This document shows positions 4,027-22,555 of a stretch of DNA of 24,000 nucleotides, one piece after another. Numbering within the stretch: the first letter of the stretch is position 1; each line of letters begins with the position of its first letter. The notes beneath the pieces were generated by a model. That model was given only the letters and a program-made list of their open reading frames with translations, did not search any database and was not told the origin of the DNA. Origin of the DNA: Candidatus Caldarchaeum subterraneum (GTDB lineage Archaea > Thermoproteota > Nitrososphaeria_A > Caldarchaeales > Caldarchaeaceae); the NCBI GenBank assembly GCA_015661775.1, contig DQVM01000076.1, positions 1 through 24,000 of the forward strand, read 5' to 3'. A program made the translations under genes and the position numbers.

Positions 4027-4874
4027 GCCGCGTATTCTTAATGCTGGATAAAATTATTCACTATATTCTTCTTTTTGGAATCTCAATAGGCGTTCTTATG
4101 CTTTCCCTGCTGCTGGTTACTGTGGTTACCGACGGATGGGGGAGGCTGTCTCTCGGGTTTCTCACCAATCCGCCGTCGGCTAACCCCGATAAGGCTGGGA
4201 TAGCCCCTGCTTTCTGGGGCTCTGTCTGGGTTGTGGGGCTGGCCGCTTTAATATCCCTCCCCCTAGGCATAGCTACTGCGCTTTACTTGACTGAATTCTC
4301 CCGCCACGAGAGGCTGAATAAGATAATCTACTTTAACATAACCAACCTGGCGGGCGTCCCCTCGGTGGTCTACGGCCTGGTGGGGTTGAGTTTCCTAACC
4401 TACACCTTAGGCTTGGGCCGTTCAGTTATAGCGGGGGCTATTACCCTAGCCTTCCTAATCCTCCCAGTGATAATCGTAGCGTCTATAGAGGCGATAAAGG
4501 CCGTGCCTGAGCTGCATAAGCTTGGAGCATACGCGTTAGGCGCCAACAAGCTGCAGGTGATAGCGCGTGTCATTCTCCCCCAATCTCTTCCGGGGGCGTT
4601 GACTGGGGGGATACTGGCTGTCTCAAGGGCGTTGGGCGAGGCTGCTCCCCTCCTAGTCATAAGCGGCCTTCTATTCACTAGAAAAACCCCAGCAGGCCTG
4701 TTAGACCAGTTTACAGTCCTCCCCCTGCAGATCTTCAACTGGGTAAGCAGGCCTCAAACGGCGTTCAGGGAATTATCGGCGGCAGCTATAATAGTTCTCC
4801 TAATACTATTACTTTTGATGAACATGTCGGCTGTTATCCTGAGGAACAGGCTGCAGAGACGGGTGGTTGAGTAG
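4023..4874 (+). CDS. pstA: Phosphate ABC transporter permease PstA
   Basis: A polytopic membrane protein with the EAA loop HKLGAYALGANKLQVIARVILPQSLPG. It overlaps pstC by 4 nt, and pstB starts immediately after its stop. Confidence 0.9.
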   Translation: MSRVFLMLDKIIHYILLFGISIGVLMLSLLLVTVVTDGWGRLSLGFLTNPPSANPDKAGIAPAFWGSVWVVGLAALISLPLGIATALYLTEFSRHERLNKIIYFNITNLAGVPSVVYGLVGLSFLTYTLGLGRSVIAGAITLAFLILPVIIVASIEAIKAVPELHKLGAYALGANKLQVIARVILPQSLPGALTGGILAVSRALGEAAPLLVISGLLFTRKTPAGLLDQFTVLPLQIFNWVSRPQTAFRELSAAAIIVLLILLLLMNMSAVILRNRLQRRVVE

Positions 4875-5684
4875 ATGACCAGCAAAATAGAGGAGATTGA
4901 CACATACTATAATATAGGATACGTTATTACTACACTAGACCTATCTGTGAAATATGGAGGAAGATACGCTATTAAGGATATTAACATCAACATACCCCGC
5001 AACAGCATAACAGCCATAATAGGCCCCAGCGGCAGCGGCAAGACCACCTTCCTACGCTGCCTAAATAGGATGAACGACCTGATAAGTAAAGCTAAGGTGG
5101 AGGGGAGGGTTCTCTTCAACGGCAAGAACATCTACGACCCTGACGTAGACCCTTATCAGATAAGGGCTAGGATAGGGATGGTTTTCCAGAAGCCCAACCC
5201 CTTCCCCAAGAGCATATTCGAGAACGTAGCATTCGGCCTGAGGATAAACGGTGTTAAGAACAGGGAGGAGATTGAGAGACGGGTGAAGCACGCCCTCACC
5301 CAAGCCGCTTTATGGGACGAGGTTAAAGACAGGCTAAACCACAACGCCTACGAGCTTTCAGGAGGGCAGCAGCAGAGGCTATGCATAGCAAGGGCATTAG
5401 CCGTAGAGCCTGAGGTCCTGCTGATGGACGAGCCGGCTGCATCTCTAGACCCTATAGCAACAGCACGTATAGAGGAGCTGATGATACGCCTAAAAGAAAG
5501 ATACACGATAATAATCGTAACCCACAACATGCAGCAGGCCGCTAGGGTAGCTGACTACACCGCCGTTATGATGCCCGACGAGGATGGAGTGGGCAAATTA
5601 GTCGAATTCGGAACAACGAGGGAGATATTCACGAATCCCAAGAGTAAGAAGACTGAGGATTACGTAAGAGGTAGGATAGGGTGA
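4875..5684 (+). CDS. pstB: Phosphate ABC transporter ATP-binding protein PstB
   Basis: Walker [10 protein letters not shown], the PstB-typical [25 protein letters not shown], the signature [15 protein letters not shown], Walker B LLMDEPASLD, and the H-loop VTHNMQQA. Confidence 0.95.
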
Positions 5685-6322
5685 TTGGTGTGAGGCTCCT
5701 CGACATAGGTATAGAGAGGCTTTCTAACATGATACTCGACATGGCGCAGATAAGCGAGAAAGCGGTTGAGATAGCTGTGGAGAGTTATGTTGAGGGTGTG
5801 GATAAGAGGGAGGAGGTCTTCAACCTCTCCCAGCAGCTCAGATGGTATCAAGACGAGGTGGCGGAGCTGGCTGTCGAGATAATAGCACGATACCAACCCG
5901 TAGCAAGCGACCTACGGTTCATACGCTCATGCATGGAGATATCCTACGGATTCTCCCGCTTCGGTAGGTACGCATACGACATAACCCAAGTCCAGACAAC
6001 CTTCGGCAGCCTAAAAGAATGCGATACAGCGAAAATCCAACAAGTAGGAGAAACAGTAAAAGAGATGATACGCCTAAGCGTAAAAGCCTTCAAAGAAAGA
6101 AACGTAGAGCTAGCCAATCAACTTGAGAAAATGGACGACGAAGTAGACAACGCATACGTAGAGCATGTAAGTAGAGCGTTAAACGACCAGAGAACCAGCA
6201 AAAGATGCGACATGGCTACAACGCTAATCCTGAGATACTTAGAGAGAATAGCTGACCACGCAACCTACATAGGGGAGTCGGTCCACTACATAGTAACAGG
6301 CGAGAGAACACCAAGAAAATAA
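5681..6322 (+). CDS. phoU: Phosphate uptake regulator PhoU
   Basis: A 213-aa all-helical protein with two PhoU-type repeats (the second contains [15 protein letters not shown]). Its GTG start overlaps the pstB stop as GTGA. It occupies the terminal position of the pst operon. Confidence 0.85.
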
Positions 6323-6526: not shown

Positions 6527-7891
6527 ATGAGTAGCGATTCCTACTATGAGGAGTTTTCTGCTAAGACCAGGGGATCGGCTGAGCTTTACGGCAAGGCGGT
6601 AAACTTAACTCCTTATGGGGTGCATAGTAATTGGCGTATCTTCGAGCCTTATCCGTTGTTTATGAAGCGCGGAAGGGGGTCTAGGATTTGGGATGTGGAT
6701 GGCAACGAGTATATCGACTATAACATGGCCTTCGGCGCTCTTGGGATTGGGCATTCGCATCCTGTTTTGGTTGAGGAGATGAAGAGGGTTATAGAGGATG
6801 GGACTATCTTCGGCTTTGAGGCTGAGAACTCCGTTAAGGTTGCTGAGGTACTTACAAGTAGGTATGGTTATGATATGGTGCGGTTCTCCACCACCGGGTT
6901 GGAGGCCACCCTCCTAGCTGTAAGGCTTGCTAGGGCCTTCACAGGCAGGAAGAAGATTCTAAAGTTCGAAGGCTGTTTCCACGGGACGCATGAGCCTCTA
7001 ATGGTAAGCGTGAAGCCCAGCGTATATAGAGCAGGCCATGTAAAGACCCCCAACCCTGTTCCAGCAAGCCTAGGAATGCCTGAGGAGTTCACCAATCTAG
7101 TTATAGCAGCGCCTTACGGCGACCTAGAGGCTACTGAGAAGATTATGCAGAGACAAGGTAACGAGGTGGCTGGGATTATATTGGAGCCTATAGCTATGAA
7201 CATGGGAGTGGTCATACCCAGCCTAGGTTTCCTACGGGGGTTAAGAGACCTAGCCGACGAGTATAACTGCGTCCTGATATTCGACGAGGTTAAGACGAGT
7301 GGAAAGTTCTACAGGGGTGTTCAGGAGTGGTGTGGGGTGAGGGGTGATATAATGGTTGTAGCCAAGTCGATAGCAGGAGGCTACCCCTTCTCAGCCGTCT
7401 TATCCAGAAGGGAGATATTCGAGGTCGTAGGCCCCAACAAAACAGCCCACGGAGGAACTTTCAACTCCAACCCCCTCTCAGTAACAGCATCATACATAAC
7501 CCTAACCAAGATACTCACGGAGGAGAACCTTAAACACTCCCAGCAGCTAAGCAGAGAACTAGCGAAGGGATACGATGATATACTAAGCGACGCTGGGCTG
7601 GAGTATAACATATCCCACATAGCAACAAGCGGCACGATATACTTCACCAGTAGAAAAATAAACAACTGGAGGGAATTTGTCAAGTACAACAACTTCGGCA
7701 GGTGGTATGCATGGGTTATGGCTATGCTGAGAAGAGGAATAATACCACAGGCTCTTGGCTACGATGAGCAGTGGACGGTCTCAATCCAACATAGCAGGGA
7801 GGATATCGACAAGACGCTTGAAGCCATGAAAGAGGCGGTTAAGGAAATTAAAGACATTTCCAAACAACTTGCAGTAGAGGAGGTTCTCTAG
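6527..7891 (+). CDS. Class-III PLP-dependent aminotransferase, glutamate-1-semialdehyde aminomutase (HemL)-like subgroup, substrate unknown
   Basis: The layout parallels HemL: RGRGSRIWDVDGNEYIDY, STTGLEATLLAVRLARAFTGR, LIFDEVKTSGKF (HemL has DEVMTGFR), AKSIAGGYP (HemL has GKIIGGG, holding the catalytic Lys), and GGTFNSNP. ATG start, with the TATA-like box TTAAATAATTT at 6484-6494. Confidence 0.8.
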   Translation: MSSDSYYEEFSAKTRGSAELYGKAVNLTPYGVHSNWRIFEPYPLFMKRGRGSRIWDVDGNEYIDYNMAFGALGIGHSHPVLVEEMKRVIEDGTIFGFEAENSVKVAEVLTSRYGYDMVRFSTTGLEATLLAVRLARAFTGRKKILKFEGCFHGTHEPLMVSVKPSVYRAGHVKTPNPVPASLGMPEEFTNLVIAAPYGDLEATEKIMQRQGNEVAGIILEPIAMNMGVVIPSLGFLRGLRDLADEYNCVLIFDEVKTSGKFYRGVQEWCGVRGDIMVVAKSIAGGYPFSAVLSRREIFEVVGPNKTAHGGTFNSNPLSVTASYITLTKILTEENLKHSQQLSRELAKGYDDILSDAGLEYNISHIATSGTIYFTSRKINNWREFVKYNNFGRWYAWVMAMLRRGIIPQALGYDEQWTVSIQHSREDIDKTLEAMKEAVKEIKDISKQLAVEEVL

Positions 7892-7945
7892 CTTATCATC
7901 TCTTAAAATATTTATGAAAACCCCATCCTTACTGGGTTGGAGAGA
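7892..7945 (+). promoter_or_regulatory. Possible internal promoter and ribosome-binding region upstream of the potA-like gene
   Basis: The TATA-like box TTAAAATATTTAT at 7903-7915 lies about 35 nt before ATG 7946. GGAG sits 4-7 nt upstream of that ATG. Read-through from the aminotransferase gene cannot be excluded. Confidence 0.35.
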
Positions 7946-9022
7946 ATGGAAGCCGAGGTTGAGATTGAGAAGGTGAAAAAGAGCTTCGGCCCTATTAAGG
8001 CTCTGAAAGAAGTGTCTCTAACTATTAGGAAGAACGAGTTCTTCTCACTCCTCGGCCCAAGCGGCTGCGGTAAGACGACGCTCCTGAGAATCATAGCTGG
8101 CCTTGAGTTCCCCGACGAGGGGGTAGTAAGGCTCGGCGGCAGGGTTGTTAACGACGTACCACCCCACAAAAGGGGAGTTGGCCTAGTCTTCCAAGGAACA
8201 GCAGTATTCCCCCACATGACAGTTTACGATAACATAGCATTCGGCCTCAAAATGCGGGGATACAAGAAAGACGAGATAGATGAGAAAATACATAAGATGC
8301 TTGAGATAATGAACATGCCCTTCGAGATTTACGCCAAGAAAAGAGTTGACCAGCTAAGCGGCGGGGAGAGGCAGAGGGTTGAGATAGCCCGCTCGCTGAT
8401 TATAGAGCCTAACGTCCTCCTCCTAGACGAGCCTCTGGGGCCGCTTGACCTGAAGATAAGGCAGAAGATGCAGATTGAGCTGAAGCGCCTCCAGAAGCGG
8501 GTTGGAACCACCTTCATCTACGTTACCCACGACCAGGGAGAGGCCCTCACCATGTCTGATAGGATAGCAGTTATGCAGAGGGGCGAGGTTCAGCAGGTGG
8601 GGACACCTGAGGAGATTTACCTAAGGCCAGCAAACAGGTTTGTAGCTGAATTTATAGGTGAGACGAACCTAATCGAGGGACGGGTAAGCGGCGATAACAC
8701 CTTCGCAGCAGACGGCCTGCGGTCAGTTATTCTATCCAGCTCCTCGAACCCTGAAAACATTATGGGAGATGCGGTTCTATCTATAAGGCCTGAGAAAATA
8801 CTAGTAGGAGACGAGAGCGCTGGGTTGGTTAATAGGTTTGAGGGTGTTGTGGAGGAGAAGATTTACATGGGGGCATACGCTGTTCTGAAGGTAAGTATAG
8901 ATGATAAGATGGCGTTAACTGTTCAGGTTCAGCCTGCCGAGAAGGTTAATGGCATAAGGGTTGGTCAGCGGATTCAAGTAGGCTGGTCGCCTGAAGACGC
9001 TACAGTTGTTAAACCAACGTGA
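7946..9022 (+). CDS. potA: PotA-type (spermidine/putrescine family) ABC transporter ATP-binding protein with a C-terminal TOBE/OB regulatory domain
   Basis: Walker A GPSGCGKTT, Q-loop VFQGTAVFPHMTVYDNIAFGL, signature LSGGERQRVEIARSL, Walker B LLLDEPLGPLD, and VTHDQGEA. The C-terminal 120 aa (FVAEFIGETNLIEG...SIRPEKI) is typical of PotA/MalK-type regulatory domains. I prefer ATG at 7946; the track start at 7937 is a TTG. Confidence 0.85.
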   Translation: MEAEVEIEKVKKSFGPIKALKEVSLTIRKNEFFSLLGPSGCGKTTLLRIIAGLEFPDEGVVRLGGRVVNDVPPHKRGVGLVFQGTAVFPHMTVYDNIAFGLKMRGYKKDEIDEKIHKMLEIMNMPFEIYAKKRVDQLSGGERQRVEIARSLIIEPNVLLLDEPLGPLDLKIRQKMQIELKRLQKRVGTTFIYVTHDQGEALTMSDRIAVMQRGEVQQVGTPEEIYLRPANRFVAEFIGETNLIEGRVSGDNTFAADGLRSVILSSSSNPENIMGDAVLSIRPEKILVGDESAGLVNRFEGVVEEKIYMGAYAVLKVSIDDKMALTVQVQPAEKVNGIRVGQRIQVGWSPEDATVVKPT

Positions 9023-9026
9023 TATC

Positions 9027-9908
9027 ATGAGCGAGAAGATCTTAGAAAAGATAAGGCACCGACGGAAAGCCCAGCTTCTCCTCATACTATCTCTCCCCCT
9101 CGCATTTTACATAATCTACTTCTTAATCCCGTTCATCGCAGCTGTAGGGGTTAGCGTGGGTTTAATCCTGCCTAGGGAGGTGCAGCTCCAGAGAGGGGAG
9201 GTAATAACGCTACGCTACTACATGGACGCTATAAACCCGATTTTCCTGAAAGTTCTTGGGAAATCCCTCTACATAGCGGTAGCTACCACGGTTCTCTGCC
9301 TAGTTTTAGGATACCCCCTCGCCTACTACGTAGCATTCAAAGGCGGAAGATACAGAAACGTCCTAATACTCTTGGTTATAGTTCCTTTCTGGGTTACCTT
9401 CCTCCTGAGAGCATACGCCATGCTCTCGCTCCTCAGCCCTGAGGGTGTTTTAAACAGCTTCTTGATAAACACGGGGATAATCTCAAAGCCCCTTTTCCTG
9501 ATTTACAACGAGAACGCGGTTCTACTAGGCATGGTATACGGTTATCTGCCTTTCACAGTTCTCCCCCTATATGCTTCGCTGGAGAAGATAAGCAGAGTAT
9601 ACGTAGAGGCTGCTAAAGTTCTCGGAGCAAGCCCAGTAAGAGCATTCCTACACGTAACGCTACCGCTGAGTAAACCCGGCCTAGTCGCTGGAACCCTGCT
9701 TACGTTCATACCATCCGCGGGGGAGTTCATAATACCTGAGTTCCTAGGAGGGCCCAACGAGTTCTTCGTAGGTAACATGATATACTCCGCTTTCATAGAG
9801 GCCCAGAACTGGAACTGGGGAGCCTCGATAGCTACGATATACATAGCAATAGTCATAGCTGGTATAATGCTCTATCTCAAGTATGTTGGGGAGGAGTTGA
9901 GAATATGA
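9027..9908 (+). CDS. potB: PotB-type ABC transporter permease
   Basis: A six-helix-type membrane protein with the EAA loop VEAAKVLGASPVRAFLHVTLPLSKPG. ATG at 9027 lies 4 nt after the potA stop; the track start at 9006 is a TTG inside potA. Confidence 0.85.
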   Translation: MSEKILEKIRHRRKAQLLLILSLPLAFYIIYFLIPFIAAVGVSVGLILPREVQLQRGEVITLRYYMDAINPIFLKVLGKSLYIAVATTVLCLVLGYPLAYYVAFKGGRYRNVLILLVIVPFWVTFLLRAYAMLSLLSPEGVLNSFLINTGIISKPLFLIYNENAVLLGMVYGYLPFTVLPLYASLEKISRVYVEAAKVLGASPVRAFLHVTLPLSKPGLVAGTLLTFIPSAGEFIIPEFLGGPNEFFVGNMIYSAFIEAQNWNWGASIATIYIAIVIAGIMLYLKYVGEELRI

Positions 9909-10681
9909 GGAGGCTAGGCGACCGGATTCTACTTGCTTACACTATAATGTTGTTCGTCTTCCTATACACGCCTATAGTATCTATGGCGTTGGTGTCCTTC
10001 AACTCAGGCCGGGGGATTCTAAAATGGGAGAGCTTTACGCTGGAGTGGTATACCAAAGCCTTGAGCAACGAGAAGATTCTTAACGCTCTGTTCAACAGCG
10101 CTTGGGTGGCTGTAACCGTTACATTACTAGCTATCGCCATGGCGTTGCTGGCAGCTATAGCTGTTGGACGGTATCAGTTTAGGTTTAAACTGGCCCTTAA
10201 CACAGGCCTGTTTCTAGCTATAGTGGTACCTGAAATAGTGGAGGCCCTAACGCTTATGCTCTTCTTCCTCTGGATAGGCTCACCGTTCGGAGCATCAACC
10301 GTAATAATAGGGCATCTAGTTTGGTTCCCCATAGTATACGTGGTTATAAGAGCCCGTATGGCCGGGATGCCTAGGGTATACGAGGAGGCTGCTAGGGTTC
10401 TAGGAGCCAACGAGTTGCAAACCTTTTTCAAGATAACACTCCCCCTCCTACTCCCGGGTATCATAACAGGAGGCCTGCTTATCTTCACATGGTCATGGGA
10501 CAGCTTCATAAAAACCCAGTTCACACGAGGCCCGGGATTTGAGACTCTCCCAATCTACATATGGAACTCAGTGGGTGCGAGAGGAAGGGGATTATCCCCT
10601 GAAGTCAACGCCATAGCTACATTATCGTTGATAATCTCGATAGCTTTGGCTTATCTCTACACTAGGTTCAGAGGAAGATAG
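9905..10681 (+). CDS. potC: PotC-type ABC transporter permease
   Basis: EAA loop EEAARVLGANELQTFFKITLPLLLPG. Its start overlaps the preceding permease gene as ATGA. Confidence 0.85.
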   Translation: MRRLGDRILLAYTIMLFVFLYTPIVSMALVSFNSGRGILKWESFTLEWYTKALSNEKILNALFNSAWVAVTVTLLAIAMALLAAIAVGRYQFRFKLALNTGLFLAIVVPEIVEALTLMLFFLWIGSPFGASTVIIGHLVWFPIVYVVIRARMAGMPRVYEEAARVLGANELQTFFKITLPLLLPGIITGGLLIFTWSWDSFIKTQFTRGPGFETLPIYIWNSVGARGRGLSPEVNAIATLSLIISIALAYLYTRFRGR

Positions 10682-10691
10682 GAGGATATTC

Positions 10692-10703
10692 TCGTATTTT
10701 TTA
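10692..10703 (+). terminator. Oligo-T run, candidate archaeal terminator of the aminotransferase-potABC unit
   Basis: A T6 run at 10697-10702 lies within the 25-nt convergent spacer between the potC stop (10681) and the potD stop (10707). Confidence 0.35.
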
Positions 10704-10706
10704 GGG

Positions 10707-11939
10707 TTAGGCCACCAGTATCTCCTGCCACGCGCGGGTTAGCATCTCACGTTCTTCAGGCGTTCTACCACGCCACGCCTCCAGCTTAGCCATAATCTCA
10801 GGCGGCGGGTATATACTCTCGTCGTTCTGCATCTCCTCAGGTAGGAGTTCGAAAGTTATCTTATTAGGCGTCATCAAGCCGTTGTATATCGTGAGCGCAA
10901 GCTGTGATGTTGGTTCGAACATGTAGTTTATCCAAGCGTAGGCCGCCTCTATGTTCTTAGCAGACTTGGGGATGATCATGCAGTCAGTCCATATCTCGCA
11001 TCCCTCCTTCGGCACTATATACTCTACGTTATTCTCAGAGCTCTGGTAAACCCATGTCTCGCTGATCCAGAAACGCCCCTCGTCAAGCCCCGGCTGGTAC
11101 TCTGAAGCAGCTGCATAAGCTGCTAGGAAGGGCTTCTGCTGTATCATAACCTCCTTAGCTGCTTCTATGTTTTCTGGCGAAAGGTCGTTTATCGACTTCC
11201 CCAACACTCCTTTTATCACGTTGGGTATCGTCTCTACACCCCCGGGTATCATGGTGGCTGTCTTCACGCCATCCTTGGGGCTGTATTTTGGTAGGAAGTA
11301 ATCAAAGTCGAAGAGAGAGTCCAACCAGCCTGTAGGCCAGTCTTCCTCCGCTATCTTATCCATTCTAAATGATATGCCGGAAGTGCCGCTCTGGTATGGT
11401 ACTGTGAATGTTCTACCGGGGTCGTATGCGGGGTTCTTAAGCTCATCGAAGACGAAGGCTTCGTAGTTGGGGATCTTGCTGTAGTCTAGCTTCGTAACGT
11501 ACCTATCATAGTCTTCTAACGTTATAGTCCCTCCGGTTATTACGGTTACGTCGTAGGGCATGTTGCCTGTAAGCAGCTTGGCCAGAACCTCGTCGCTGGT
11601 TTCGAAGGTGTCGTAGATTATCTTGACGCCTGTCCTCTCCTCGAAGAGGGTTAGCAGCTGCTCCGGGATGTATTCCGACCAGTTGAATATCCTCAGTTCT
11701 TTATCCGGTATCTCATACTGGGCCAGCTTCTCCTTTAACTCCTGTATCTCGGCCTCTAGTTTTGATATCGTTTCTCCTGCGAGCTTCTCCGCCTCCTTCT
11801 GCTGTTGTTCTGCAAGTTTTTCAAGCTCAGCTCTAGCGGAGTTTAGGCCTGCCATGTAACCGCCCGCCACTCCAGCTATGCCCGCAGCTACCGCAGCTCC
11901 AACAACCTTAAAGAAGGAACGCCGGTTTCCGTTCGTCAT
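10707..11939 (-). CDS. potD: PotD/PotF-type polyamine-binding protein with a twin-arginine-like signal/anchor and a coiled-coil stalk
   Basis: The core matches the PotD pattern: LRIFNWSEYIPEQLLTLFEERTGVKIIYDTFETSDEVLAKL, YDVTVITG, and TVPYQSGTSGISF. The N-terminus is MTNGNRRSFFKVVGAAVAAGIAGVAGG, an RRxFFK motif plus a hydrophobic segment. It is followed by the helical ELEKLAEQQQKEAEKLAGETISKLEAEIQELKEKLAQYE. Confidence 0.85.
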   Translation of the reverse strand: MTNGNRRSFFKVVGAAVAAGIAGVAGGYMAGLNSARAELEKLAEQQQKEAEKLAGETISKLEAEIQELKEKLAQYEIPDKELRIFNWSEYIPEQLLTLFEERTGVKIIYDTFETSDEVLAKLLTGNMPYDVTVITGGTITLEDYDRYVTKLDYSKIPNYEAFVFDELKNPAYDPGRTFTVPYQSGTSGISFRMDKIAEEDWPTGWLDSLFDFDYFLPKYSPKDGVKTATMIPGGVETIPNVIKGVLGKSINDLSPENIEAAKEVMIQQKPFLAAYAAASEYQPGLDEGRFWISETWVYQSSENNVEYIVPKEGCEIWTDCMIIPKSAKNIEAAYAWINYMFEPTSQLALTIYNGLMTPNKITFELLPEEMQNDESIYPPPEIMAKLEAWRGRTPEEREMLTRAWQEILVA

Positions 11940-11991
11940 ATTTTATACTTCAGCCCATAGATGGTATATAAGCATTTTAAGAAAAAAGGAT
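11940..11991 (-). promoter_or_regulatory. Terminator of the upstream dehydrogenase gene plus the promoter of the potD-like gene
   Basis: On the minus strand, a T6 run (plus-strand 11982-11987) lies just after the stop at 11992. GCTTATATACC (plus-strand 11961-11973) lies about 28 nt before ATG 11939, which fits a leaderless transcript. Confidence 0.4.
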
Positions 11992-13167
11992 CTAGTTTAA
12001 AACCTCTTTACGGTCTTCTGTTATTTTTATTCCATGTTTGCCTATTTCGTTGAATAGGTTCTCTGGGTTTATGCATACCTCCGGTGGGACAACCCCTTTT
12101 TCCTTAATCTCGCCGTCTGCTATCATTATTGATGCTGTTGAAGAAGGGAGTCCCACGCCTATCTGGGCGCTGCTCATTCTCCACTCAGGCTTGGGGGGTA
12201 TCGTTATGTCGTAGATTTTTCTTACAGGCTTTCCGAGCCTTTCACCTTCTATTATTACTCGTGTTATCTCCCAATCGTTGGGGGTTACGTCTTCAGGGTA
12301 TCCTACCCACCCTTTCTTATCTAACATTGTTAGGAGGAATTTCCTAGGGTTTATTTTGGTTGAGTTGATTTCTATATCCTCAGATTCGGCAAACCCTATG
12401 TCTGCCAGCATTTTGATGAAGAGCAGGTCTGGGCTTCCTTCCATCCAGTCGCATCTCCTAAGCCCTTTATCTCTGAAGCTCCGTGGGAGCGTGGCTATCT
12501 CCGAGTGTATGGTAACGTAGGTATCCATACGCCCTATCGGTTCTGGGAAATCCACGGTCTCGCATCTTGATAAAGCAGGTATGGTCTTCAGCTCTCCATT
12601 CTCGTAAATAACCGCGTCCATAACCATCTCATCGAATAAAGTCTGTAGAGACCAAGTAACAACAAACGGCGGAGCACCTTCTGTAAAGTCCCTAGAACCA
12701 TCCCGTATAAGAACTGAGAACATCTTATCAAGGTAATCAGCAGCGTGCCGTGCTACAACATTCGTTACACCCGGCTGAGCTCCCATACCTATGACCGCCA
12801 CCAACCCAGCTGACTTGAAGAGTTTATCCAGCTCAAGCTGCTTTAGCGTAACGTGATATAAACCCCCATGATCCACGTAGTTAACCCTGGCCTTTAACGC
12901 AGCCTGCATAACTGGTATATTGAAGTAATACTGCACCGCGTTTATGACTACGTCAAAACCTCTTAGAAGCTCTGCGGTCTTCTCAACATCTGTAACGTCA
13001 ACTTGAGCAAACGTTAGTTTTCCGCTCTTTATTTTCTTAGCTACCCTATCTAGGGCTTTCCTGTTTATATCTCCTACGAGTATTTCGGAGACCTTCTTGT
13101 TTTCAACTAGGTTTCTTACAGCGGCTTGGCCTGTTAACCCTGCTCCTCCTAGAACAGCTATACGCAA
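11992..13167 (-). CDS. Saccharopine dehydrogenase-like NAD(P)-dependent oxidoreductase, carboxy(nor)spermidine dehydrogenase-like architecture, paralog 1
   Basis: Starts with the Rossmann motif MRIAVLGGAGLTGQAAV. The family-typical blocks follow in order: VINAV, NYVD, GMGAQPGVTNVVARHAA, SLQTLFDEM, VDFPEPIG, YVTIHSEIATLP, MLADIGF, and GVVPPEV. Length is 391 aa. The TTG start is forced, because the two codons upstream read TAG-GGT. GGTG lies 9 nt upstream. Confidence 0.75.
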   Translation of the reverse strand: MRIAVLGGAGLTGQAAVRNLVENKKVSEILVGDINRKALDRVAKKIKSGKLTFAQVDVTDVEKTAELLRGFDVVINAVQYYFNIPVMQAALKARVNYVDHGGLYHVTLKQLELDKLFKSAGLVAVIGMGAQPGVTNVVARHAADYLDKMFSVLIRDGSRDFTEGAPPFVVTWSLQTLFDEMVMDAVIYENGELKTIPALSRCETVDFPEPIGRMDTYVTIHSEIATLPRSFRDKGLRRCDWMEGSPDLLFIKMLADIGFAESEDIEINSTKINPRKFLLTMLDKKGWVGYPEDVTPNDWEITRVIIEGERLGKPVRKIYDITIPPKPEWRMSSAQIGVGLPSSTASIMIADGEIKEKGVVPPEVCINPENLFNEIGKHGIKITEDRKEVLN

Positions 13168-13307
13168 ACCCTACACCAAGCCGGTTAATTTTAAGGTGTA
13201 TTCTATAAAACTTTCCTCATACTTGGTGGATTAAGGTTTATAGCAACTCTGCAGCGATGGATAGGTGGGTGTTAACAAGAGGTATGCAACGTAGCGATTC
13301 TGCTGAG
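13168..13307. promoter_or_regulatory. Divergent promoter region between dehydrogenase paralog 1 and the SpeH-like gene
   Basis: TATA-like boxes are present on both strands: AAGGTTTATAGC at 13233-13244 on the plus strand, and TTTTATAG / CTTAAAATTAA on the minus strand. The plus-strand box implies a transcription start downstream of the ATG at 13257, which supports the 13308 start. Confidence 0.35.
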
Positions 13308-13661
13308 ATGAAAATTGTGGGTAAGCATGTTTATGCCAACCTCTACGACTGCGACCCTTGGGTTATAGATGACGAGGAGAGGCTGGTGGGAATTGTCAAA
13401 AGAACAGCCGAGATAACCAACTCAAAGCTTATTCAAGTTCTCTCATGGAGGTTTGGCGGAGAAAAAGGCGGAGTATCTGCAATAGCCTTGATAAACGAAA
13501 GCCACATAGCAATACATACATGGAAAGCCTACAACTACGCGACAGTGGATATCTACACCTGCGGAACCCACACAGACCCAGAAAAAGGTTTAGAATACAT
13601 AATCTCACAGCTTAAACCCGTAAAAACAGTAAAACACGCGATAAACAGGTCTCTAACATAA
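13308..13661 (+). CDS. speH: Pyruvoyl-dependent S-adenosylmethionine decarboxylase-family proenzyme (small SpeH/SpeD type); the substrate could be AdoMet, arginine, or something else
   Basis: MKIVGKHVYANLYDCD...GVSAIALINESHIAIHTWKAYNYATVDIYTCG matches the small prokaryotic AdoMetDC fold. The self-cleavage Glu-Ser (Ser codon AGC at 13500-13502) falls at residue 65 when counted from the ATG at 13308. This matches the position known from bacterial and archaeal homologs. The 17-aa extension from 13257 has no counterpart in the family. Confidence 0.8.
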   Translation: MKIVGKHVYANLYDCDPWVIDDEERLVGIVKRTAEITNSKLIQVLSWRFGGEKGGVSAIALINESHIAIHTWKAYNYATVDIYTCGTHTDPEKGLEYIISQLKPVKTVKHAINRSLT

Positions 13662-13960
13662 AACACCTAAAAGACAGAGAATAAAGATGTGTGGAACATA
13701 GATAACGTGTTATAGGCTTAAAAGGGTTTGAAGAGAGAGTATTATCCACGCATATTGCTTCTAGAAGAGATAAATACAAGCTTTAGAATCTAGAGTATAG
13801 CGGCTGAATGGCCTGATGTAAGGGCCATGGCCGTTTATTGACGTGGGGCTGGGAGGCTGTTAGAGGAGGATTCCAATTCGGATAAAATCAACAACCTCTA
13901 CTCTCGGTCTTTCTGGCTTCCGTTAGTAGATGCAGTATCGTCTAGAGGTGAGTATAGTCT

Positions 13961-15133
13961 TTGAAGATACTAGTTCTTGGTGTTGGAGCTGTAGGTGAGG
14001 TAATAGTTAAGCACCTCACCGATAATGGTAGGATATCACTTACCGTGGCCGATGTAGACGAGGCTAGACTCCGTAGGATAAAACGTAAGGTAAAAGAGAG
14101 GAAGCTAAGAACTGAGAAGATAAACATGGGCGATGCTGAGAGGCTTGAAGAGATTATCAAGGACCATGAACTGCTGGTTAACGCAGCTACACCCGACATA
14201 AACCTGATGCTGATGAACTCCTGCTTAAAACACGGCGTTAACTACATAGACCTAGCCAGCGATGAGATAGATGAACAACTCTCTTTAGATAGGAAATACA
14301 AGAGCAAAGAGATAATGGCTATAATCTGCCTAGGCGAAGACCCCGGTCTTTCAAACATCTACGCCAGATACGCAGCTGACAGGCTGGATAAAGTTCATGA
14401 GATAAAGATAAGGGATGGCGAGGTTTCAAAAAGCAGGAAATACCCCCTGGTGGCTTTATTCTCCCCCGAGGTATTCTTCGACGAGATTCTATCACCCTCC
14501 TACATATACGTTGATGGACGTTATAAGAAACTATCTCCGTTCAGCGGGTATGAGCTGTATGAGTTTCCAGAGCCTTTAGGTAGGCAGCCAGTTTACTCAG
14601 TGGCCCATGAGGAGGTCTTCACACTACCTAAGTTCATCAAGAAGGGGGTTAGGTATGTTGACTTCAAGCTGTCGTTATCGGATGAGCTTATACAAGCTAT
14701 AAAGCTCCTTAGGCGTATAGGCTTGTTGAGGGCCCGTAAGGTTCCTGTGAAGGGTACGAAAGTGGCTCCGAAGGATGTCTTCTTCGCTCTCATGCCCAAG
14801 CCATCTGAGGTTTCTAGGTATATAGAGGGGCATGCGGCGTTGGTTGTGGAGGTTACTGGAGAGTCGGAGAAGAGGGAGGTAACCTACACGATGTACACGT
14901 TGATGAGCCACGAGGAGGCGTATAGGATGTTCAGAGCCAACGCAACAGCATACCTAACAGGTACTGTCCCTGCCGTTATAGCAGGAATGATAGCTAAGGG
15001 CAAGATAGAGGGCGAGGGCGTTATGGTCCCTGAACAGCTTGAGCCTGAGCCTATAATAGAGGAGATAGCTGAGAAGAAGATAGTAAGCTACTTAGAAACC
15101 TCTGAAGAAGGCGTGATGCCCATGGCAGAATAG
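13961..15133 (+). CDS. Saccharopine dehydrogenase-like NAD(P)-dependent oxidoreductase, carboxy(nor)spermidine dehydrogenase-like architecture, paralog 2
   Basis: Starts with the Rossmann motif MKILVLGVGAVGEVIVKHL. The family blocks follow: LVNAATP, NYIDLA, LGEDPGLSNIYARYAA, FSPEVFFDEI, YEFPEPLG, YSVAHEEVFTLPKF, LLRRIGLL, TGTVPAVIAGMIAKG, and GVMVPEQLEPEP. Length is 390 aa. The TTG start is forced, because the upstream in-frame codons read TAG-TCT. GAGGTGA lies 10 nt upstream. Confidence 0.75.
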   Translation: MKILVLGVGAVGEVIVKHLTDNGRISLTVADVDEARLRRIKRKVKERKLRTEKINMGDAERLEEIIKDHELLVNAATPDINLMLMNSCLKHGVNYIDLASDEIDEQLSLDRKYKSKEIMAIICLGEDPGLSNIYARYAADRLDKVHEIKIRDGEVSKSRKYPLVALFSPEVFFDEILSPSYIYVDGRYKKLSPFSGYELYEFPEPLGRQPVYSVAHEEVFTLPKFIKKGVRYVDFKLSLSDELIQAIKLLRRIGLLRARKVPVKGTKVAPKDVFFALMPKPSEVSRYIEGHAALVVEVTGESEKREVTYTMYTLMSHEEAYRMFRANATAYLTGTVPAVIAGMIAKGKIEGEGVMVPEQLEPEPIIEEIAEKKIVSYLETSEEGVMPMAE

Positions 15134-15356
15134 CCAAAAAGCATCCCATTTCTTCAGATAAGCTCCAAAAAGACCCCATTCATCATCTATACCGATAAGA
15201 AAAGCCCAGACGCCTTCTATCGTCAAAAACATGATTTAACGGTTAAACAGACCCTTATCTATTGAGATTCGCGTATTCTGTGCAGAGATTAACGAAGACC
15301 CTGTTTGAGATAGATTTTAGAAATGCTAGTTAGTAGGTGTAGTAGTGGTTTAAGAC

Positions 15357-16703
15357 ATGAGCACCGAGCTGAGGAAGACAGATTACTACCGGGAGCTTGC
15401 CCGTAAGGTTCTTCCAAAGAACTTCTGGACTGAAAAAACCATCACTGCTGACTTCATAGTTGAAAGAGCTTCCGGCTCCTACTTGATAGACGTAGAGGGA
15501 CGTAAGTTCATAGACCTAACAAGCCAATGGTCTACTAATAATGTGGGGAACGTGCATCCCGCGGTGCTTGAAGCAGCTATAGAGGGGCTTAAGCAGTATG
15601 GTTTTCTAATCTATGGATTGAATCTACATAAGCCGGTCTTCGAGCTTGCTCAGGAGCTTCTTAGAATAGCTCCTTCAAAGAAGCTAACCCGCGTGGCCCT
15701 TGAGCTCTCCGGGACGGGTGCTGTTGACGCTGCTGTTAAGTTTGCCTTAGGTGTTAAGAAGAGGCCTCATATCATAAGTTTCTTAGGCCAGTACCATGGC
15801 TATTATACCGGTACGTTAAACTACAGCCCTGAGAGCGCCGAGGCTAGGCGTTACTACGAGAGCTTCTTAGGAAGCGTCTCTATACTGCTCCCGTATCCCT
15901 ATGAATACAGAGCCCCCGCCGGTATGTCTGGTGAGGAGTGGGGAGGGTTTATAGTGGATTACATAGAGGATAACATACTCCGTTACCAAGCCGCAGCAGA
16001 TAGGATAGCCGCGATTCTCTTCGAGCCTATAGCATGTGAGGCCGGTGTCTGGATACCTCCTGACAGCTTCATCCACGGCCTGAGGAAGCTGGCGGATAAA
16101 TACGGCTGGTTTCTGGTAGCGGATGAGGTTATGACAGGTTTCGGCAGGACAGGGAGGTGGTTTGCGATAGAGCACTGGGGGATAGACGCTGAGCTGGTTC
16201 CACTCGGTAAGGGGATATGCGGGGGGATATTCCCCATAGCAGCTGTATACGGAAGCGAGGAGGCTATGGCTAGTGAGGTTATAGACTATGGAACGACATT
16301 CGGAGGCCATCCTGCAGGATGCCTAGCGGCGCTGGCTAACATCAAGGTTATGGAGCAGGAGAGGATAGTTGAACGCTCAGCCAAGCTGGGTGAGAAGGCC
16401 CTGAAACGAATCAAAGACTGGCCTGAGAGGTATGAGATAGTAGGCGACGTGAGGGGGAGGGGGCTCTTGATAGGCATAGAGTTCGTCAAGGATAAACGCC
16501 TCAAGACAAGAAACCCCGAATCCGCCAGAACAGTGTATATAGAGTCTATAAAACGCGGGGTAGTTCCGTTGATGGACAGCGGAGACTGGACGCTTAGAGT
16601 ACAGCCCCCGTTAACTATAGAGGAGGAGACCCTGATGCATTCTTTCGACGTCATAGAGGAGGCTGTGAAGATTGCTGAGAGAGAATTCAAACAATCCAGT
16701 TAG
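15357..16703 (+). CDS. Class-III PLP-dependent aminotransferase (4-aminobutyrate/ornithine/putrescine aminotransferase-like)
   Basis: LSGTGAVDAAVKFA, FLGQYHGYY, FEPIACEAGVWIPP, LVADEVMTGFGRTGRWFA, the catalytic-Lys block PLGKGICGG, and TTFGGHP. ATG start. Confidence 0.85.
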   Translation: MSTELRKTDYYRELARKVLPKNFWTEKTITADFIVERASGSYLIDVEGRKFIDLTSQWSTNNVGNVHPAVLEAAIEGLKQYGFLIYGLNLHKPVFELAQELLRIAPSKKLTRVALELSGTGAVDAAVKFALGVKKRPHIISFLGQYHGYYTGTLNYSPESAEARRYYESFLGSVSILLPYPYEYRAPAGMSGEEWGGFIVDYIEDNILRYQAAADRIAAILFEPIACEAGVWIPPDSFIHGLRKLADKYGWFLVADEVMTGFGRTGRWFAIEHWGIDAELVPLGKGICGGIFPIAAVYGSEEAMASEVIDYGTTFGGHPAGCLAALANIKVMEQERIVERSAKLGEKALKRIKDWPERYEIVGDVRGRGLLIGIEFVKDKRLKTRNPESARTVYIESIKRGVVPLMDSGDWTLRVQPPLTIEEETLMHSFDVIEEAVKIAEREFKQSS

Positions 16704-17503
16704 ATAATCTCCTCCAACAACCCCTTCCTATGCAGCAGGTAGATAATCAAGCTACCTACTATTACTATTATAGCCGACACCGCGTTCACTATAGGAAGCT
16801 TCTTGGGGTATCTTATGCTGCTCCAAACCCATATAGGGAAGGTAAGGTCGGAGCCTATCGTGAAGTAGGTTATGATGAAGTTGTCGAAGGACCAGATGAA
16901 GGTGATTAACGCTGCAGCCGCTACTGCTGGGAATATCTGGGGGAGCATTATTTTTCTGAAGACCTGCAGCTGGTCTGCTCCCAAGTCCATGGCGGCTTCG
17001 TTTAGTCTTATGTTGTAGGTTAGCAGCCTGGATCCCACTATTATGACTACTACGGGGATGCTGTACGTTAGGTGGCTGAGGACTACGGTTAGGAAGGAGA
17101 GCTCCATACCTACGGTTATGTAGAATATCAGGGAGGCTACTCCTATTAAGAGCCATGGGATTACAAAGGGAACCGCCATGAACATTATGAAGACATCCTT
17201 TTTCCTGCCTCGCAGCGATGCGAAGGTGAAGGCTGCTGGGAGGCCGAGCACCATAGCTGCAGCGGTTACAATACTAGCTATGATAAGCGAGTTCCCTAGG
17301 CTTCTGAAGAGAAACTCCTCCTCAAACATTGCCATATACCATCTTAGGCTAAACCCTGCGAAGGGGAAGCTGAAGAAGGCCTTAGCATGGAAGGAGAACA
17401 GGATTAGAAGAAATATGGGGAGGTATATTAGTAGGGAGACTACAGAGGCTGTGTAACCGCCTAGCAGCAGCTTGGCTATACTCCAGTTTTTCCTCACGCT
17501 CAT
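16700..17503 (-). CDS. PotC-type ABC transporter permease (system 2)
   Basis: EAA loop NEAAMDLGADQLQVFRKIMLPQIFPA. Its start overlaps the upstream permease gene as ATGA. Its stop codon overlaps the stop of the convergent aminotransferase gene. Confidence 0.85.
   Translation of the reverse strand: MSVRKNWSIAKLLLGGYTASVVSLLIYLPIFLLILFSFHAKAFFSFPFAGFSLRWYMAMFEEEFLFRSLGNSLIIASIVTAAAMVLGLPAAFTFASLRGRKKDVFIMFMAVPFVIPWLLIGVASLIFYITVGMELSFLTVVLSHLTYSIPVVVIIVGSRLLTYNIRLNEAAMDLGADQLQVFRKIMLPQIFPAVAAAALITFIWSFDNFIITYFTIGSDLTFPIWVWSSIRYPKKLPIVNAVSAIIVIVGSLIIYLLHRKGLLEEII
16867..16915. repeat. 49-nt perfect repeat shared with 21094-21142, inside the paralogous PotC-type permease genes
   Basis: aggttatgatgaagttgtcgaaggaccagatgaaggtgattaacgctgc is identical at both sites. 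Extending to 16854-16915 versus 21081-21142 adds only 2 mismatches. The flanks are diverged. Confidence 0.9.
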
Positions 17504-18390
17504 CTGTAAAGCGCCTCCATTCCGAGTATCTTGACCATTATACCTACTATTATCAGGCTGGTGGCGAGTAGGATAACGCTTGCCGCAGTTGCTAGGGGCC
17601 AGTTACCTGCTGCAAGCAGCTGGTTCTCAATCATGTTTCCTATCATATAGCCTGACTTCCCACCCACCAAGGCGGGGATGGCGAATTCGCCCAGAGCGGG
17701 TATAAAGACTATGAAGATAGCTGTAAGTATGCCGGGTTTACAAAGCGGTAGGGTTATCTTCAGGAAGGTCTGTAGCCTAGAAGCCCCTAGGTCGTGGGCC
17801 GCTTCGTAGAGGCTGCGGGGGATGCTTCTCAGCGATATGTAAAGGGGAATAACTACGTAGGGAAGCCACTCATGCATCGTAACTATTACTATAGCGAACC
17901 AGTTGTAGAAGAATATAGGCAGGGGCTTCTCTATAACCCCTACCGCTACTAGGAAGCTGTTTAGAATACCGTTTTCTCCTAGTATTGTACGCCATGCGAA
18001 GATGCGTATGAGATAGTTTATCTCGACTGGGATGAGCATGAGTAGTATTATACGGTCTGCGCTTGACCTTACGTACCGGGCTATAAAATATGCTATTGGG
18101 AAGCCGACTATCAGGAGCAAGGCCATGGCCACGCCCACTATGAATATTGTGTTCAGGAGAACTCTTGTATAGATGGGTGATGTGAAGAACCTTAGGTAGT
18201 TCTCAAGCGTTAAGGCTGGTTCGAACCTGAATAGCTTTAGATACCTCCAGAAGCTGTAGTACATCAGCATAGCAATCGGTATGTAGAAGAGGAGAAGCAG
18301 GTAGGTGGTTGATGGAATCCAGTTTATCCATCTTCTTCTCCCAAGCCACGTGAGTAACCCCTTACGGCTGGGCAGCATCCCTTGATACAC
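17500..18390 (-). CDS. PotB-type ABC transporter permease (system 2)
   Basis: EAA loop YEAAHDLGASRLQTFLKITLPLCKPG. The start is either GTG at 18390 (9 nt after the ATPase stop) or ATG at 18378. Confidence 0.8.
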   Translation of the reverse strand: MYQGMLPSRKGLLTWLGRRRWINWIPSTTYLLLLFYIPIAMLMYYSFWRYLKLFRFEPALTLENYLRFFTSPIYTRVLLNTIFIVGVAMALLLIVGFPIAYFIARYVRSSADRIILLMLIPVEINYLIRIFAWRTILGENGILNSFLVAVGVIEKPLPIFFYNWFAIVIVTMHEWLPYVVIPLYISLRSIPRSLYEAAHDLGASRLQTFLKITLPLCKPGILTAIFIVFIPALGEFAIPALVGGKSGYMIGNMIENQLLAAGNWPLATAASVILLATSLIIVGIMVKILGMEALYR

Positions 18391-18399
18391 CTGACAAAG

Positions 18400-19473: not shown

Positions 19474-19484
19474 CAATACGCACG

Positions 19485-22553: not shown

Positions 22554-22555
22554 GT

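Follow-up and report, generated by a model that had tools for sequence, protein, structure and literature searches.

The first steps known from bacterial polyamine catabolism are transamination, gamma-glutamylation, acetylation, attack by an amine oxidase and cleavage by SpdH, a heme-binding enzyme of the polyamine-oxidase type (PMC9397018). The SpdH route starts with its key reaction, the splitting of spermidine by a dehydrogenase into a diamine and an amino-aldehyde; after this cleavage in Pseudomonas, putrescine is converted through 4-aminobutanal to gamma-aminobutyrate (GABA), and 3-aminopropanal through beta-alanine and malonate semialdehyde to acetyl-CoA (PMC9397018). We have analysed a stretch of 24,000 nucleotides from Candidatus Caldarchaeum subterraneum (contig DQVM01000076.1 of assembly GCA_015661775.1, positions 1 to 24,000; hereafter the window), in which two divergent genes for proteins of the saccharopine-dehydrogenase family, SDH-A and SDH-B, lie together with two class-III aminotransferase genes (AT1 and AT2), a gene for a small SpeD-like pyruvoyl decarboxylase and three importers of the Pot type. 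Judged from its genes and their relatives, this region probably, though by no means certainly, forms an island for taking up and degrading (or salvaging) polyamine-like amines and is not a biosynthetic pathway.

Such an island shares its logic and its downstream enzyme types with the bacterial routes (PatA/SpuC, PatD/KauB, GabT and GabD; SpdH with BauA/BauC). Omega-transaminases, an aminobutyraldehyde dehydrogenase, a CoA-acylating malonate-semialdehyde dehydrogenase and linked polyamine importers are common to both, whereas the hosts of the module described here are archaea. It also differs in its candidate for C-N cleavage, a predicted NAD-dependent protein with a Rossmann fold from the saccharopine-dehydrogenase family, which is neither of the SpdH type nor an amine oxidase nor a gamma-glutamylating enzyme. 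The known routes have no Rossmann-type enzyme at this point. For this initial cleavage the SDH proteins clearly offer themselves as candidates, and the island would then amount to polyamine breakdown begun by an enzyme of a new type. The closest characterised relatives of these proteins are biosynthetic: carboxyspermidine dehydrogenase (CASDH), carboxynorspermidine dehydrogenase (CANSDH) and carboxyaminopropylagmatine dehydrogenase (CAPADH) consist of the same PF03435 and PF16653 domains, and SDH-A and SDH-B likely perform the same interconversion of secondary amine, imine, and aldehyde plus amine. In contrast to these enzymes, SDH-A has a His-Ser-Glu motif with Gln at the position of D140, the cofactor pockets of the window proteins carry Asp and not the phosphate-binding Ser, Thr, Lys and Arg, and the SDH genes are neighboured by importers, transaminases and aldehyde-oxidising enzymes and, in the annotated loci, never by a decarboxylase dependent on pyridoxal 5'-phosphate (PLP). 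In the literature searched we found no description of an archaeal polyamine catabolic pathway and no paper on the saccharopine-dehydrogenase family in polyamine catabolism or on such a cluster, and a preliminary description of this DNA was fair, within that literature, in calling the arrangement undescribed.

From the gene identities, synteny, co-occurrence and active-site and cofactor-site residues presented here, we infer the substrates, the direction of the reactions and the role of the SpeD-like protein as follows. The three Pot-type ATP-binding cassette (ABC) systems would import the substrates. SDH-A and SDH-B, as NAD+-dependent relatives of CASDH working in the oxidative direction, would convert a secondary amine of the polyamine to an imine, and hydrolysis of the imine would give a shorter amine and an amino-aldehyde; spermidine or norspermidine, for example, would yield putrescine or 1,3-diaminopropane together with 3-aminopropanal or 4-aminobutanal. 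AT1 and AT2 would turn terminal amines and omega-amino acids into aldehydes and pass the nitrogen to an oxo-acid. The aldehydes would be led through beta-alanine or GABA to acetyl-CoA or succinate by enzymes encoded outside the window, which in relatives are encoded within the cluster. The SpeD-like gene would be an insertion between the divergent SDH genes, likely encoding an arginine decarboxylase, and would not be obligatory. A catabolic island in which the SDH enzymes run oxidatively had been named in the preliminary description as the alternative to a biosynthetic route, and it is now favoured by the conserved importers, omega-aminotransferases and aldehyde-oxidising enzymes and by the NAD-type cofactor sites.

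The conservation of the neighbourhood was surveyed by scanning one genome per species with an alignment of SDH-A, which gave 80 loci onto which the reference proteins were then mapped; counts refer to loci of at least 15 kb. The closest named relatives of the source organism are Candidatus Pelearchaeum and Caldarchaeum, of the order Caldarchaeales in the phylum Nitrososphaerota (formerly Aigarchaeota), and they derive from geothermal sites (PMC10547907). The same contig, identical, is present in three metagenome assemblies. A very close relative (L092/L093) has the same gene order including the SpeD-like gene, its other proteins being 78-93% identical to those of the window. L010 and L013 (Pelearchaeum maunauluense), in which SDH-B is 70-72% identical, possess AT1, SDH-A, a Pot system, SDH-B and AT2 and have no SpeD, and L010 additionally retains the upstream pst-phoU genes; relatives with an SDH-B identity of 63-72% have the same module without SpeD. 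Caldarchaeum (L005/L006) and HR01 (L007) combine AT1 or a further aminotransferase, AT3, with PotABC, the binding protein SBP1, SDH-A, SDH-B and a molybdenum-cofactor (MoCo) aldehyde oxidoreductase, and the Caldarchaeum cluster has an extra gene for an ArgE/DapE-type deacylase. In L010, L011 and L013-L017, too, both SDHs occur together with AT1 or AT3 and an ABC system of the Pot type. Because the contig recurs in three metagenomes and the core is syntenic in relatives, the gene arrangement is not due to chance.

All five Caldarchaeales loci have at least two aminotransferases, a Pot binding protein and both SDHs, and four of the five have the MoCo aldehyde oxidoreductase. The Thermoplasmatota loci encode an aminotransferase (31/31), an aldehyde dehydrogenase (30/31) and an Opp-type binding protein (29/31), and their single SDH gene is flanked by two importer genes, those of the binding protein and the ATPase. 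In 14 of the 15 Chloroflexota loci, the SDH genes form tandem arrays of two or three paralogues. The Nitrososphaerales loci, which were seeded with SDH-B, contain a divergent SDH pair, two to three aminotransferases, two aldehyde dehydrogenases and an Opp-type importer. No SpeD homologue was detected in any of the 80 SDH-A-seeded loci even at E <= 1e-3, and it is absent from L005, L007, L010, L011 and L013. Neither a PLP-dependent decarboxylase nor speE nor agmatinase occurs in the Pfam-annotated relative loci, and the window, too, is without a PLP-dependent decarboxylase for carboxy(nor)spermidine or carboxyaminopropylagmatine. The conserved unit is therefore one or more SDHs, omega-aminotransferase(s), an importer and aldehyde-oxidising enzyme(s), to the exclusion of the decarboxylase. 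Of the five-gene neighbourhood whose conservation the preliminary description had proposed to examine, the SDHs and the aminotransferases are conserved, as is an ABC importer, while SpeD is found in the closest relatives only. The combination of SDH, aminotransferase, importer and aldehyde-oxidising enzymes across Caldarchaeales, Nitrososphaerales, Thermoplasmatota and Chloroflexota is a catabolic signature.

Two aldehyde dehydrogenases, both of catabolic types, recur in these loci. The first is of the aminobutyraldehyde-dehydrogenase subfamily and scores 590-614 bits (cutoff 615). The second, which exceeds its cutoff of 448.5 with 476-509 bits, is a CoA-acylating (methyl)malonate-semialdehyde dehydrogenase, and its gene adjoins that of a SpuC/BauA-like omega-transaminase. 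The MoCo oxidoreductase of the Caldarchaeales is closest to the glyceraldehyde-dehydrogenase type (745 bits, cutoff 790), and the piperideine-6-carboxylate dehydrogenase model gave 218 bits on the linked aldehyde dehydrogenases (cutoff 730). In Caldarchaeum (L005, 6541-9808), an amidohydrolase of the M20/M20_dimer type and a DHO_dh-type gene (dihydropyrimidine/dihydroorotate dehydrogenase-like) are encoded just upstream of SDH-B, which hints at catabolism of pyrimidine-derived beta-alanine clustered with the module in this organism.

AT1 is a member of Aminotran_3 (1.3e-65), but its NCBIfam matches, HemL TIGR00713 (350 bits, cutoff 527.3), NF000818 (348, cutoff 398) and the guanitoxin transaminase GntE (346, cutoff 525), are all below the cutoffs; GSAM enzymes are its closest solved structures. 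Its orthologues, 69-76% identical, lie inside the same module in L005, L010, L011 and L092, and it is predicted from its sequence to be an amino-aldehyde or diamine transaminase. AT2 (Aminotran_3, 2.4e-91) reached 347.7 bits with PRK05769, the cutoff of which is 552, and has orthologues of 76% identity in L010 and 92% in L092. Among solved structures it comes closest to 7vno of P. horikoshii and to two racemases, 9wrf and 9wqz; we take 7vno to be an ornithine delta-aminotransferase, its PDB name saying only 'hypothetical 4-aminobutyrate aminotransferase'. It could be argued that the five enzyme genes are unrelated housekeeping neighbours without a common pathway, such as a true HemL, an AdoMet decarboxylase (AdoMetDC) and amino-acid aminotransferases, given that AT1 and AT3 are HemL-like, that AT3 of HR01 passes one HemL subfamily cutoff (411.9 vs 398 bits) and that the SpeD homologue of Caldarchaeum stands among housekeeping genes. 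With AT1 below every HemL cutoff and with SDH, aminotransferase, importer and aldehyde-oxidising enzymes linked in four phyla and dozens of species representatives, we find this hardly credible.

SDH-A and SDH-B share the architecture and length of the CASDH/CANSDH/CAPADH class. Their best matches among solved structures were the CASDH-type proteins 8deb, 4ina, 4rl6 and 8h4z, and their identity to CASDH-type proteins is 24-29%. SDH-A matched 8deb (CASDH) best, at 3.3e-28, and lysine 6-dehydrogenase (LysDH; 3abi) at 3.1e-15; SDH-B matched 4ina at 3.9e-49 and 8deb at 4.1e-41. The bit scores with CASDH-type proteins were 131-171 for SDH-B and 74-102 for SDH-A, those with LysDH (3abi) 47-59 and that with saccharopine reductase 28. 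Both proteins stayed below the cutoff of the CANSDH equivalog NF043000 (800 bits), with 147.3 bits for SDH-B and 65.4 for SDH-A. In a bootstrapped neighbour-joining tree with four CASDH/CAPADH enzymes as references, SDH-B was sister to the references with 78% bootstrap, each group alone being supported by 100%. The four references were monophyletic in 100% of the replicates, with SDH-A and SDH-B both outside. SDH-A fell outside the group formed by SDH-B and the references and was placed with a third clade; monophyly of SDH-A including the Chloroflexota copies reached only 20% bootstrap. The expectation that both proteins resemble CASDH over lysine and saccharopine enzymes was thus borne out by their nearest relatives and by the triad of SDH-B, but neither lies inside the characterised CASDH/CANSDH/CAPADH clade. 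The third clade, seen in Chloroflexota loci L070-L091 (e.g. L072, 7575-11137), has a His-Pro-Glu triad and Phe at the Asp166 position, and it also includes an archaeal protein (L011, 8677-9834). An obligate SDH-A/SDH-B heterodimer finds no support: the Thermoplasmatota carry only SDH-A, and the Nitrososphaerales carry two copies of the B type without any of the A type.

The active site of BfCASDH comprises His228-Glu229-Glu230, Glu188 and Ser144, and the triad is missing from saccharopine reductase and LysDH (PMC10413350). Mutagenesis of CAPADH backs the residues equivalent to this site. In SDH-B the residues D127, S131, D152, E175 and H216-E217-E218 correspond to D140, S144, D166, E188 and H228-E229-E230 of BfCASDH, and this set is retained in 53 of the 54 members of the SDH-B clade. 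SDH-A has H221-S222-E223, the H-S-E motif being invariant in its clade (78/78); it retains His, the second Glu and Glu188 of the CASDH site, Ser replaces Glu229, and Q131 and T135 stand at the positions of D140 and S144, the former being occupied by Gln, Val or Ala within the clade. The amine-recognition loop of CAPADH (N104, F113) is shortened in both proteins. LysDH has Ser-Asp-Gly at the His-x-Glu positions. Imine chemistry is plausible for these proteins because the catalytic His and the Glu relay are retained across all clades. In a docking model of CAPADH, the residue at position 229 touches the amine's distal cationic group; it is Glu in SDH-B and Ser in SDH-A, so that the two enzymes probably differ in the polyamine or the C-N bond attacked.

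The 2'-phosphate of NADPH is held in BfCASDH by Ser34, Thr36, Lys39 and Arg45, and NADH gives no turnover (PMC10413350). SDH-A has Asp33 at the end of Rossmann strand beta-2, and SDH-B has Asp31, Asp33 and Glu34 in the NADP-phosphate pocket. The respective column is Asp in all SDH-A (75/75) and SDH-B (53/53) clade members and Asp or Glu in 25 of 26 proteins of the third clade; it is Ser-Arg in the four CASDH/CAPADH references and acidic in the NAD-dependent LysDH. An acidic residue at this Rossmann position goes with the use of NAD+, as is usual for catabolic dehydrogenases. The residues thus predict that SDH-A and SDH-B use NAD+. In the 80-locus survey, genes of the SDH-A clade occur together with those of aminotransferases, aldehyde dehydrogenases and importers.

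The homologues of both proteins bear generic or automatic names; in HR01, SDH-B is called 'carboxynorspermidine synthase' and SDH-A 'lysine 6-dehydrogenase'. The latter automatic annotation leads to the view that the SDHs are LysDH or saccharopine-type enzymes acting on imported lysine or ornithine, with the aminotransferases and aldehyde dehydrogenases processing aminoadipate and glutamate semialdehydes. An NAD-type G-D motif and a T-W-S motif are indeed common to SDH-A and the P. horikoshii LysDH, and we take 7vno, the closest structure to AT2, to be an ornithine delta-aminotransferase. Such catabolism of basic amino acids is nevertheless quite unlikely: CASDH-type proteins score higher (102-171 bits) than LysDH (47-59) or saccharopine reductase (28), and the importers are of the Pot type and not of the amino-acid type. 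The linked dehydrogenases are of the aminobutyraldehyde and malonate-semialdehyde types and not aminoadipate-semialdehyde dehydrogenases, and both SDHs have the catalytic His/Glu pair that LysDH lacks (PMC10413350).

With regard to uptake, the PotA, PotB, PotC and PotD/F models were the best NCBIfam matches of importers 1-3, every component being below its equivalog cutoff, and in both Caldarchaeum and HR01 the synteny of the importer 1 block with AT1 and SBP1 is preserved. The window importers have the same four-component organisation as PotABCD and PotFGHI, and Pot proteins are their best family and structure matches. The solved-structure matches of SBP1 were exclusively polyamine-binding proteins (PotD, PotF and SpuD/E; 1.7e-42 to 1.9e-23). 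SBP1 and SBP2 were aligned with E. coli PotD, and SBP1 also with E. coli PotF. We take the ligand residues of PotD to be W34, T35, E36, Y37, S83, Y85, D168, E171, W229, W255, D257, Y293 and Q327 (13 in total; the letters were checked against the PotD sequence). SBP1 retains W34, E36, Y37, W229, W255 and D257, with Ser or Thr at 35 and 83, and is without Y85, D168, E171, Y293 and Q327; SBP2 retains W34, E36, D168 and W229 only. Because five ligand residues are lost, the predicted polyamine-like ligand of SBP1 need not be spermidine or putrescine. SBP2 belongs to SBP_bac_8/6 and matched PotD best in NCBIfam (81 bits). The binding-protein gene of importer 3 starts at 23631 and runs past the window end, and on the longer contig L001 its product matches SBP_bac_8 (1.9e-19). 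In contrast to PotD and PotF, the window binding proteins sit on long membrane stalks and have five or six of the ligand residues replaced, SBP2 and SBP3 being more divergent. SBP1 (10707-11939, minus strand) is anchored in the membrane via a coiled-coil stalk of approximately 45 residues (EKLAEQQQKEAEKL...IQELKEKLAQYE), and SBP2 (19485-20732, minus strand) via a Thr/Val-rich linker.

The importers of other lineages bring in a further explanation, namely that another N-alkylated amine is degraded: an opine-like substance or a compound with an N-(3-amino-3-carboxypropyl) group, such as a nicotianamine-type metallophore or a carboxylated polyamine. The aldehyde set free by the SDH would then be aspartate semialdehyde or that of another amino acid. 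Opp-type (SBP_bac_5) importers, a family that carries opines and metallophores, occur in most clusters outside the Caldarchaeales, the Caldarchaeum cluster encodes the ArgE/DapE-type deacylase, and SDH-B retains the residues for the aspartate-semialdehyde-derived moiety of CASDH and CAPADH. The importers of the window and of the Caldarchaeales are, however, of the Pot type with a polyamine aromatic box, and aminopropanal or aminobutanal and malonate semialdehyde are the substrates suggested by the aldehyde dehydrogenases of the clusters. The Opp-type binding protein of Thermoplasmatota, when compared with solved proteins, was too distant from every ligand class to suggest a ligand. On the whole, we regard this explanation as unlikely for the module; opine-like or carboxylated amines are possible substrates, most of all in the lineages with Opp importers and for SDH-B with its intact CASDH site.

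The SpeD-like protein is a genuine member of its family (PF02675, 3.7e-33; TIGR03330, 119.5 bits, above the cutoff of 75.65). Its ORF begins at 13257, gene callers using an alternative start at 13269; the N-terminus and start codon vary among gene calls, with lengths of 134, 130 and 125 aa. Like AdoMetDC and the SpeD-derived arginine decarboxylases (SpeDA), it has the fold of the family and its self-processing Ser, catalytic His and Cys: Ser82 of the processing motif N-E-S82-H (codon 13500-13502), His87 and Cys102 align with S63, H68 and C83 of the T. maritima enzyme. A proline is fully conserved in bona fide AdoMetDCs and not in SpeD-derived arginine decarboxylases (Li et al., PMC10407285, Fig. 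8). We mapped this reference residue to the sole Pro of the T. maritima S63-C83 segment, and in the window protein Lys90 takes its place (H-T-W-K90-A-Y). The lack of Pro following H-T-W is shared with SpeDA of the crenarchaeal SSO0536 type; among the homologues of TACK archaea (the lineages of Thermoproteota and Nitrososphaerota), too, the majority are without the AdoMetDC Pro. No other clear signature of SpeDA proteins besides the loss of Pro has been described, and the supplement of the same paper contains no crenarchaeal sequences (PMC10407285). The window protein is likely to be an arginine decarboxylase and not an AdoMetDC, an assignment that therefore has the missing Pro as its sole basis, there being no positive signature in the sequence that separates arginine decarboxylase from enzymes for other substrates. 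Archaea need agmatine for the modification of tRNA-Ile, and Crenarchaeota use a SpeD-derived arginine decarboxylase for its supply.

The position of the gene between two SDH genes was seen only in the window, L092/L093 and L099. In 80 metagenome loci seeded on relatives of the SpeD-like protein, an SDH gene was adjacent in one, the locus with a 71%-identical protein, and the others had assorted housekeeping neighbours. In the same way, the 25 most frequent neighbour families of 29 TACK homologue loci include neither speE nor agmatinase and consist of assorted housekeeping genes; the window gene resembles these homologues in not being adjacent to speE but differs from other SpeD homologues, none of which sits between two CASDH-like genes. 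It also diverges faster than its neighbours: with 75% identity to its counterpart in L092 (7076-7453), it is the least conserved gene of the block, the twelve neighbouring genes being 78-93% identical. Caldarchaeum has a single SpeD homologue elsewhere in its genome, beside MoaE and ThiS among housekeeping genes; the two sequence types of SpeD in Caldarchaeum are orthologues at the same MoaE-ThiS locus and not paralogues. By these comparisons the SpeD-like gene is a lineage-specific insertion, a late local addition to the module and not an obligatory part of it. A second case of a SpeD homologue adjoining an amine dehydrogenase gene was seen in L095 (1101-2707), where a SpeD-like gene (58% identical, no Pro) and a gene resembling meso-diaminopimelate dehydrogenase (DapB_N/DAP_DH_C) are divergent neighbours.

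The distribution of SpeD also bears on the hybrid biosynthetic route put forward in the preliminary description. In the form considered here, aspartate semialdehyde and one of the amines putrescine, agmatine or 1,3-diaminopropane would be joined by SDH-B and/or SDH-A, an aminotransferase would supply the diamine, and the SpeD-like enzyme would replace the PLP-dependent decarboxylases of carboxyspermidine (CASDC) or carboxyaminopropylagmatine (CAPADC) to give spermidine, norspermidine or aminopropylagmatine. SDH-B, sister to CASDH and CAPADH, does retain D140, S144, D166, E188 and His-Glu-Glu, and the order SDH-A, SpeD, SDH-B is common to L092, L093 and L099. The SpeD-like protein, without the AdoMetDC-specific Pro, should hence act on some other amino-acid substrate, and SpeD homologues have switched to arginine and ornithine, both of which resemble carboxyspermidine (PMC10407285). 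The proposal is nevertheless not supported and is very unlikely. The module lacks SpeD in all other lineages (0/80 SDH-A loci), and no SDH lies near the SpeD-like gene in 79 of the 80 SpeD loci (1/80 with SDH). The cofactor pockets are of the NAD type, whereas CASDH and CAPADH use NADPH; importers, omega-transaminases and aldehyde-oxidising enzymes, the catabolic neighbours, are unneeded by a biosynthetic route; and SpeD is the fastest-diverging gene in the block (75% vs 78-93%). In a narrower form, limited to one Caldarchaeales lineage, the SpeD-like pyruvoyl enzyme would have been recruited to decarboxylate the carboxylated condensation product made by SDH-B from aspartate semialdehyde and putrescine, agmatine or a diamine. 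We consider this to be slightly less probable still; if true, it would constitute a third, hybrid route to spermidine-type polyamines and would extend the AdoMetDC fold to a new class of substrates.

Several observations weigh against the reading of the region as a catabolic island. The SDH-A, SDH-B and AT1/AT3 clades contain no characterised member, and amino-acid racemases are among the relatives of AT2. The window itself encodes no aldehyde dehydrogenase or oxidoreductase. SBP1 has only about 7 of the 13 PotD ligand residues and SBP2 fewer, so the ligand may not be spermidine or putrescine, and the Thermoplasmatota and Nitrososphaerales use Opp-type binding proteins, the usual cargo of which is peptides, opines and metallophores. 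SDH-B has the full CASDH constellation, including the residues proposed to hold aspartate semialdehyde, and may act on a carboxylated substrate. Finally, the adjacency of SpeD and SDH in at least three diverged close relatives (SpeD 67-75% identical) may reflect a functional link at the level of this lineage.

The features of the window are given in the table below. Open reading frames (ORFs) of at least 190 aa were surveyed (23 in total) and assigned to families by Pfam and NCBIfam. All five enzyme genes named in the preliminary description were found where it had placed them. Its two diverged paralogues of about 390 aa are SDH-A and SDH-B (31% identical), and its HemL-like and GABA-type aminotransferases at the two ends are AT1 and AT2, AT1 failing the HemL cutoffs. 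Its three Pot-type importers are present as well; they both flank and interrupt the enzyme genes. As it had also stated, none of speE, CASDC, agmatinase and bpsA is encoded by the surveyed ORFs of the 24-kb window. An Rfam scan of the entire window gave zero matches, and no riboswitch was found in the gaps 13662-13960 and 15134-15356.

Features of the 24,000-nucleotide window
Feature	Positions	Strand	Family or basis of assignment
AT1, class-III aminotransferase, HemL/GntE-like subgroup	6527-7891	+	Aminotran_3
Importer 1, PotA/PotB/PotC-like ABC (ATPase and two permeases)	7937-10681	+	NCBIfam best matches, all below cutoff
Importer 1 ABC system including SBP1	7937-11939	PotABC +, SBP1 -	Pot-family best matches
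SBP1, PotD/PotF-like substrate-binding protein, membrane-anchored	10707-11939	-	Solved-structure and NCBIfam matches
SDH-A, 391 aa	11992-13167	-	Sacchrp_dh_NADP (PF03435) and Sacchrp_dh_C (PF16653)
SpeD-like pyruvoyl decarboxylase proenzyme	13257-13661	+	AdoMet_dc (PF02675), TIGR03330
SDH-B, 390 aa	13961-15133	+	Sacchrp_dh_NADP (PF03435) and Sacchrp_dh_C (PF16653)
AT2, class-III aminotransferase, archaeal GABA-AT/ornithine-AT-like group	15357-16703	+	Aminotran_3
Importer 2, PotC-, PotB- and PotA-like proteins and SBP2	16700-20732	-	NCBIfam best matches PotC, PotB, PotA
Importer 3, PotC-, PotB- and PotA-like proteins and start of binding-protein gene	20912-24000	-	NCBIfam best matches
Antisense ORF within the PotA-like gene	18581-19261		
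Remaining ORFs of at least 190 aa: CARF protein, one unknown, pstSCAB-phoU			

A complete phosphate uptake operon, pstS-pstC-pstA-pstB-phoU (2049-6322, plus strand), lies directly upstream of AT1, and the junction of pst-phoU with AT1 is also present in L010. Further upstream, a CARF/Csx1-like protein is encoded at 422-1384 (plus strand; PADLOC CARF3, 1.8e-65) in a stretch of low G+C content (1-2000; 0.415 vs approximately 0.48-0.50 elsewhere), and a 198-aa ORF without a family match (1489-2085, minus strand) adjoins it. This stretch may be a remnant or the edge of a CRISPR or defence locus. In importer 2, the longest ORF of the PotA-like gene (18400-19521, minus strand) overlaps the end of the SBP2 gene (19485-20732, minus strand) by 37 bases. 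Gene callers place the PotA-like start on the identical contig 12 bases further downstream (369 aa), by which an overlap of 25 bases remains.

If the CASDH-like proteins are NAD-dependent polyamine dehydrogenases, they would form a new class of C-N cleavage enzymes, in which the CASDH fold is run backwards. This would explain a gene cluster of Caldarchaeales, Nitrososphaerales, Thermoplasmatota and Chloroflexota and would correct the annotations of its genes as saccharopine dehydrogenase, lysine 6-dehydrogenase or carboxynorspermidine synthase. With the SpeD-like gene, a further candidate joins the AdoMetDC homologues that have changed their function. For the organisms themselves, the module would provide a route for the use of polyamine carbon and nitrogen in Nitrososphaerota that do not oxidise ammonia and in the Thermoplasmata of acid mines.

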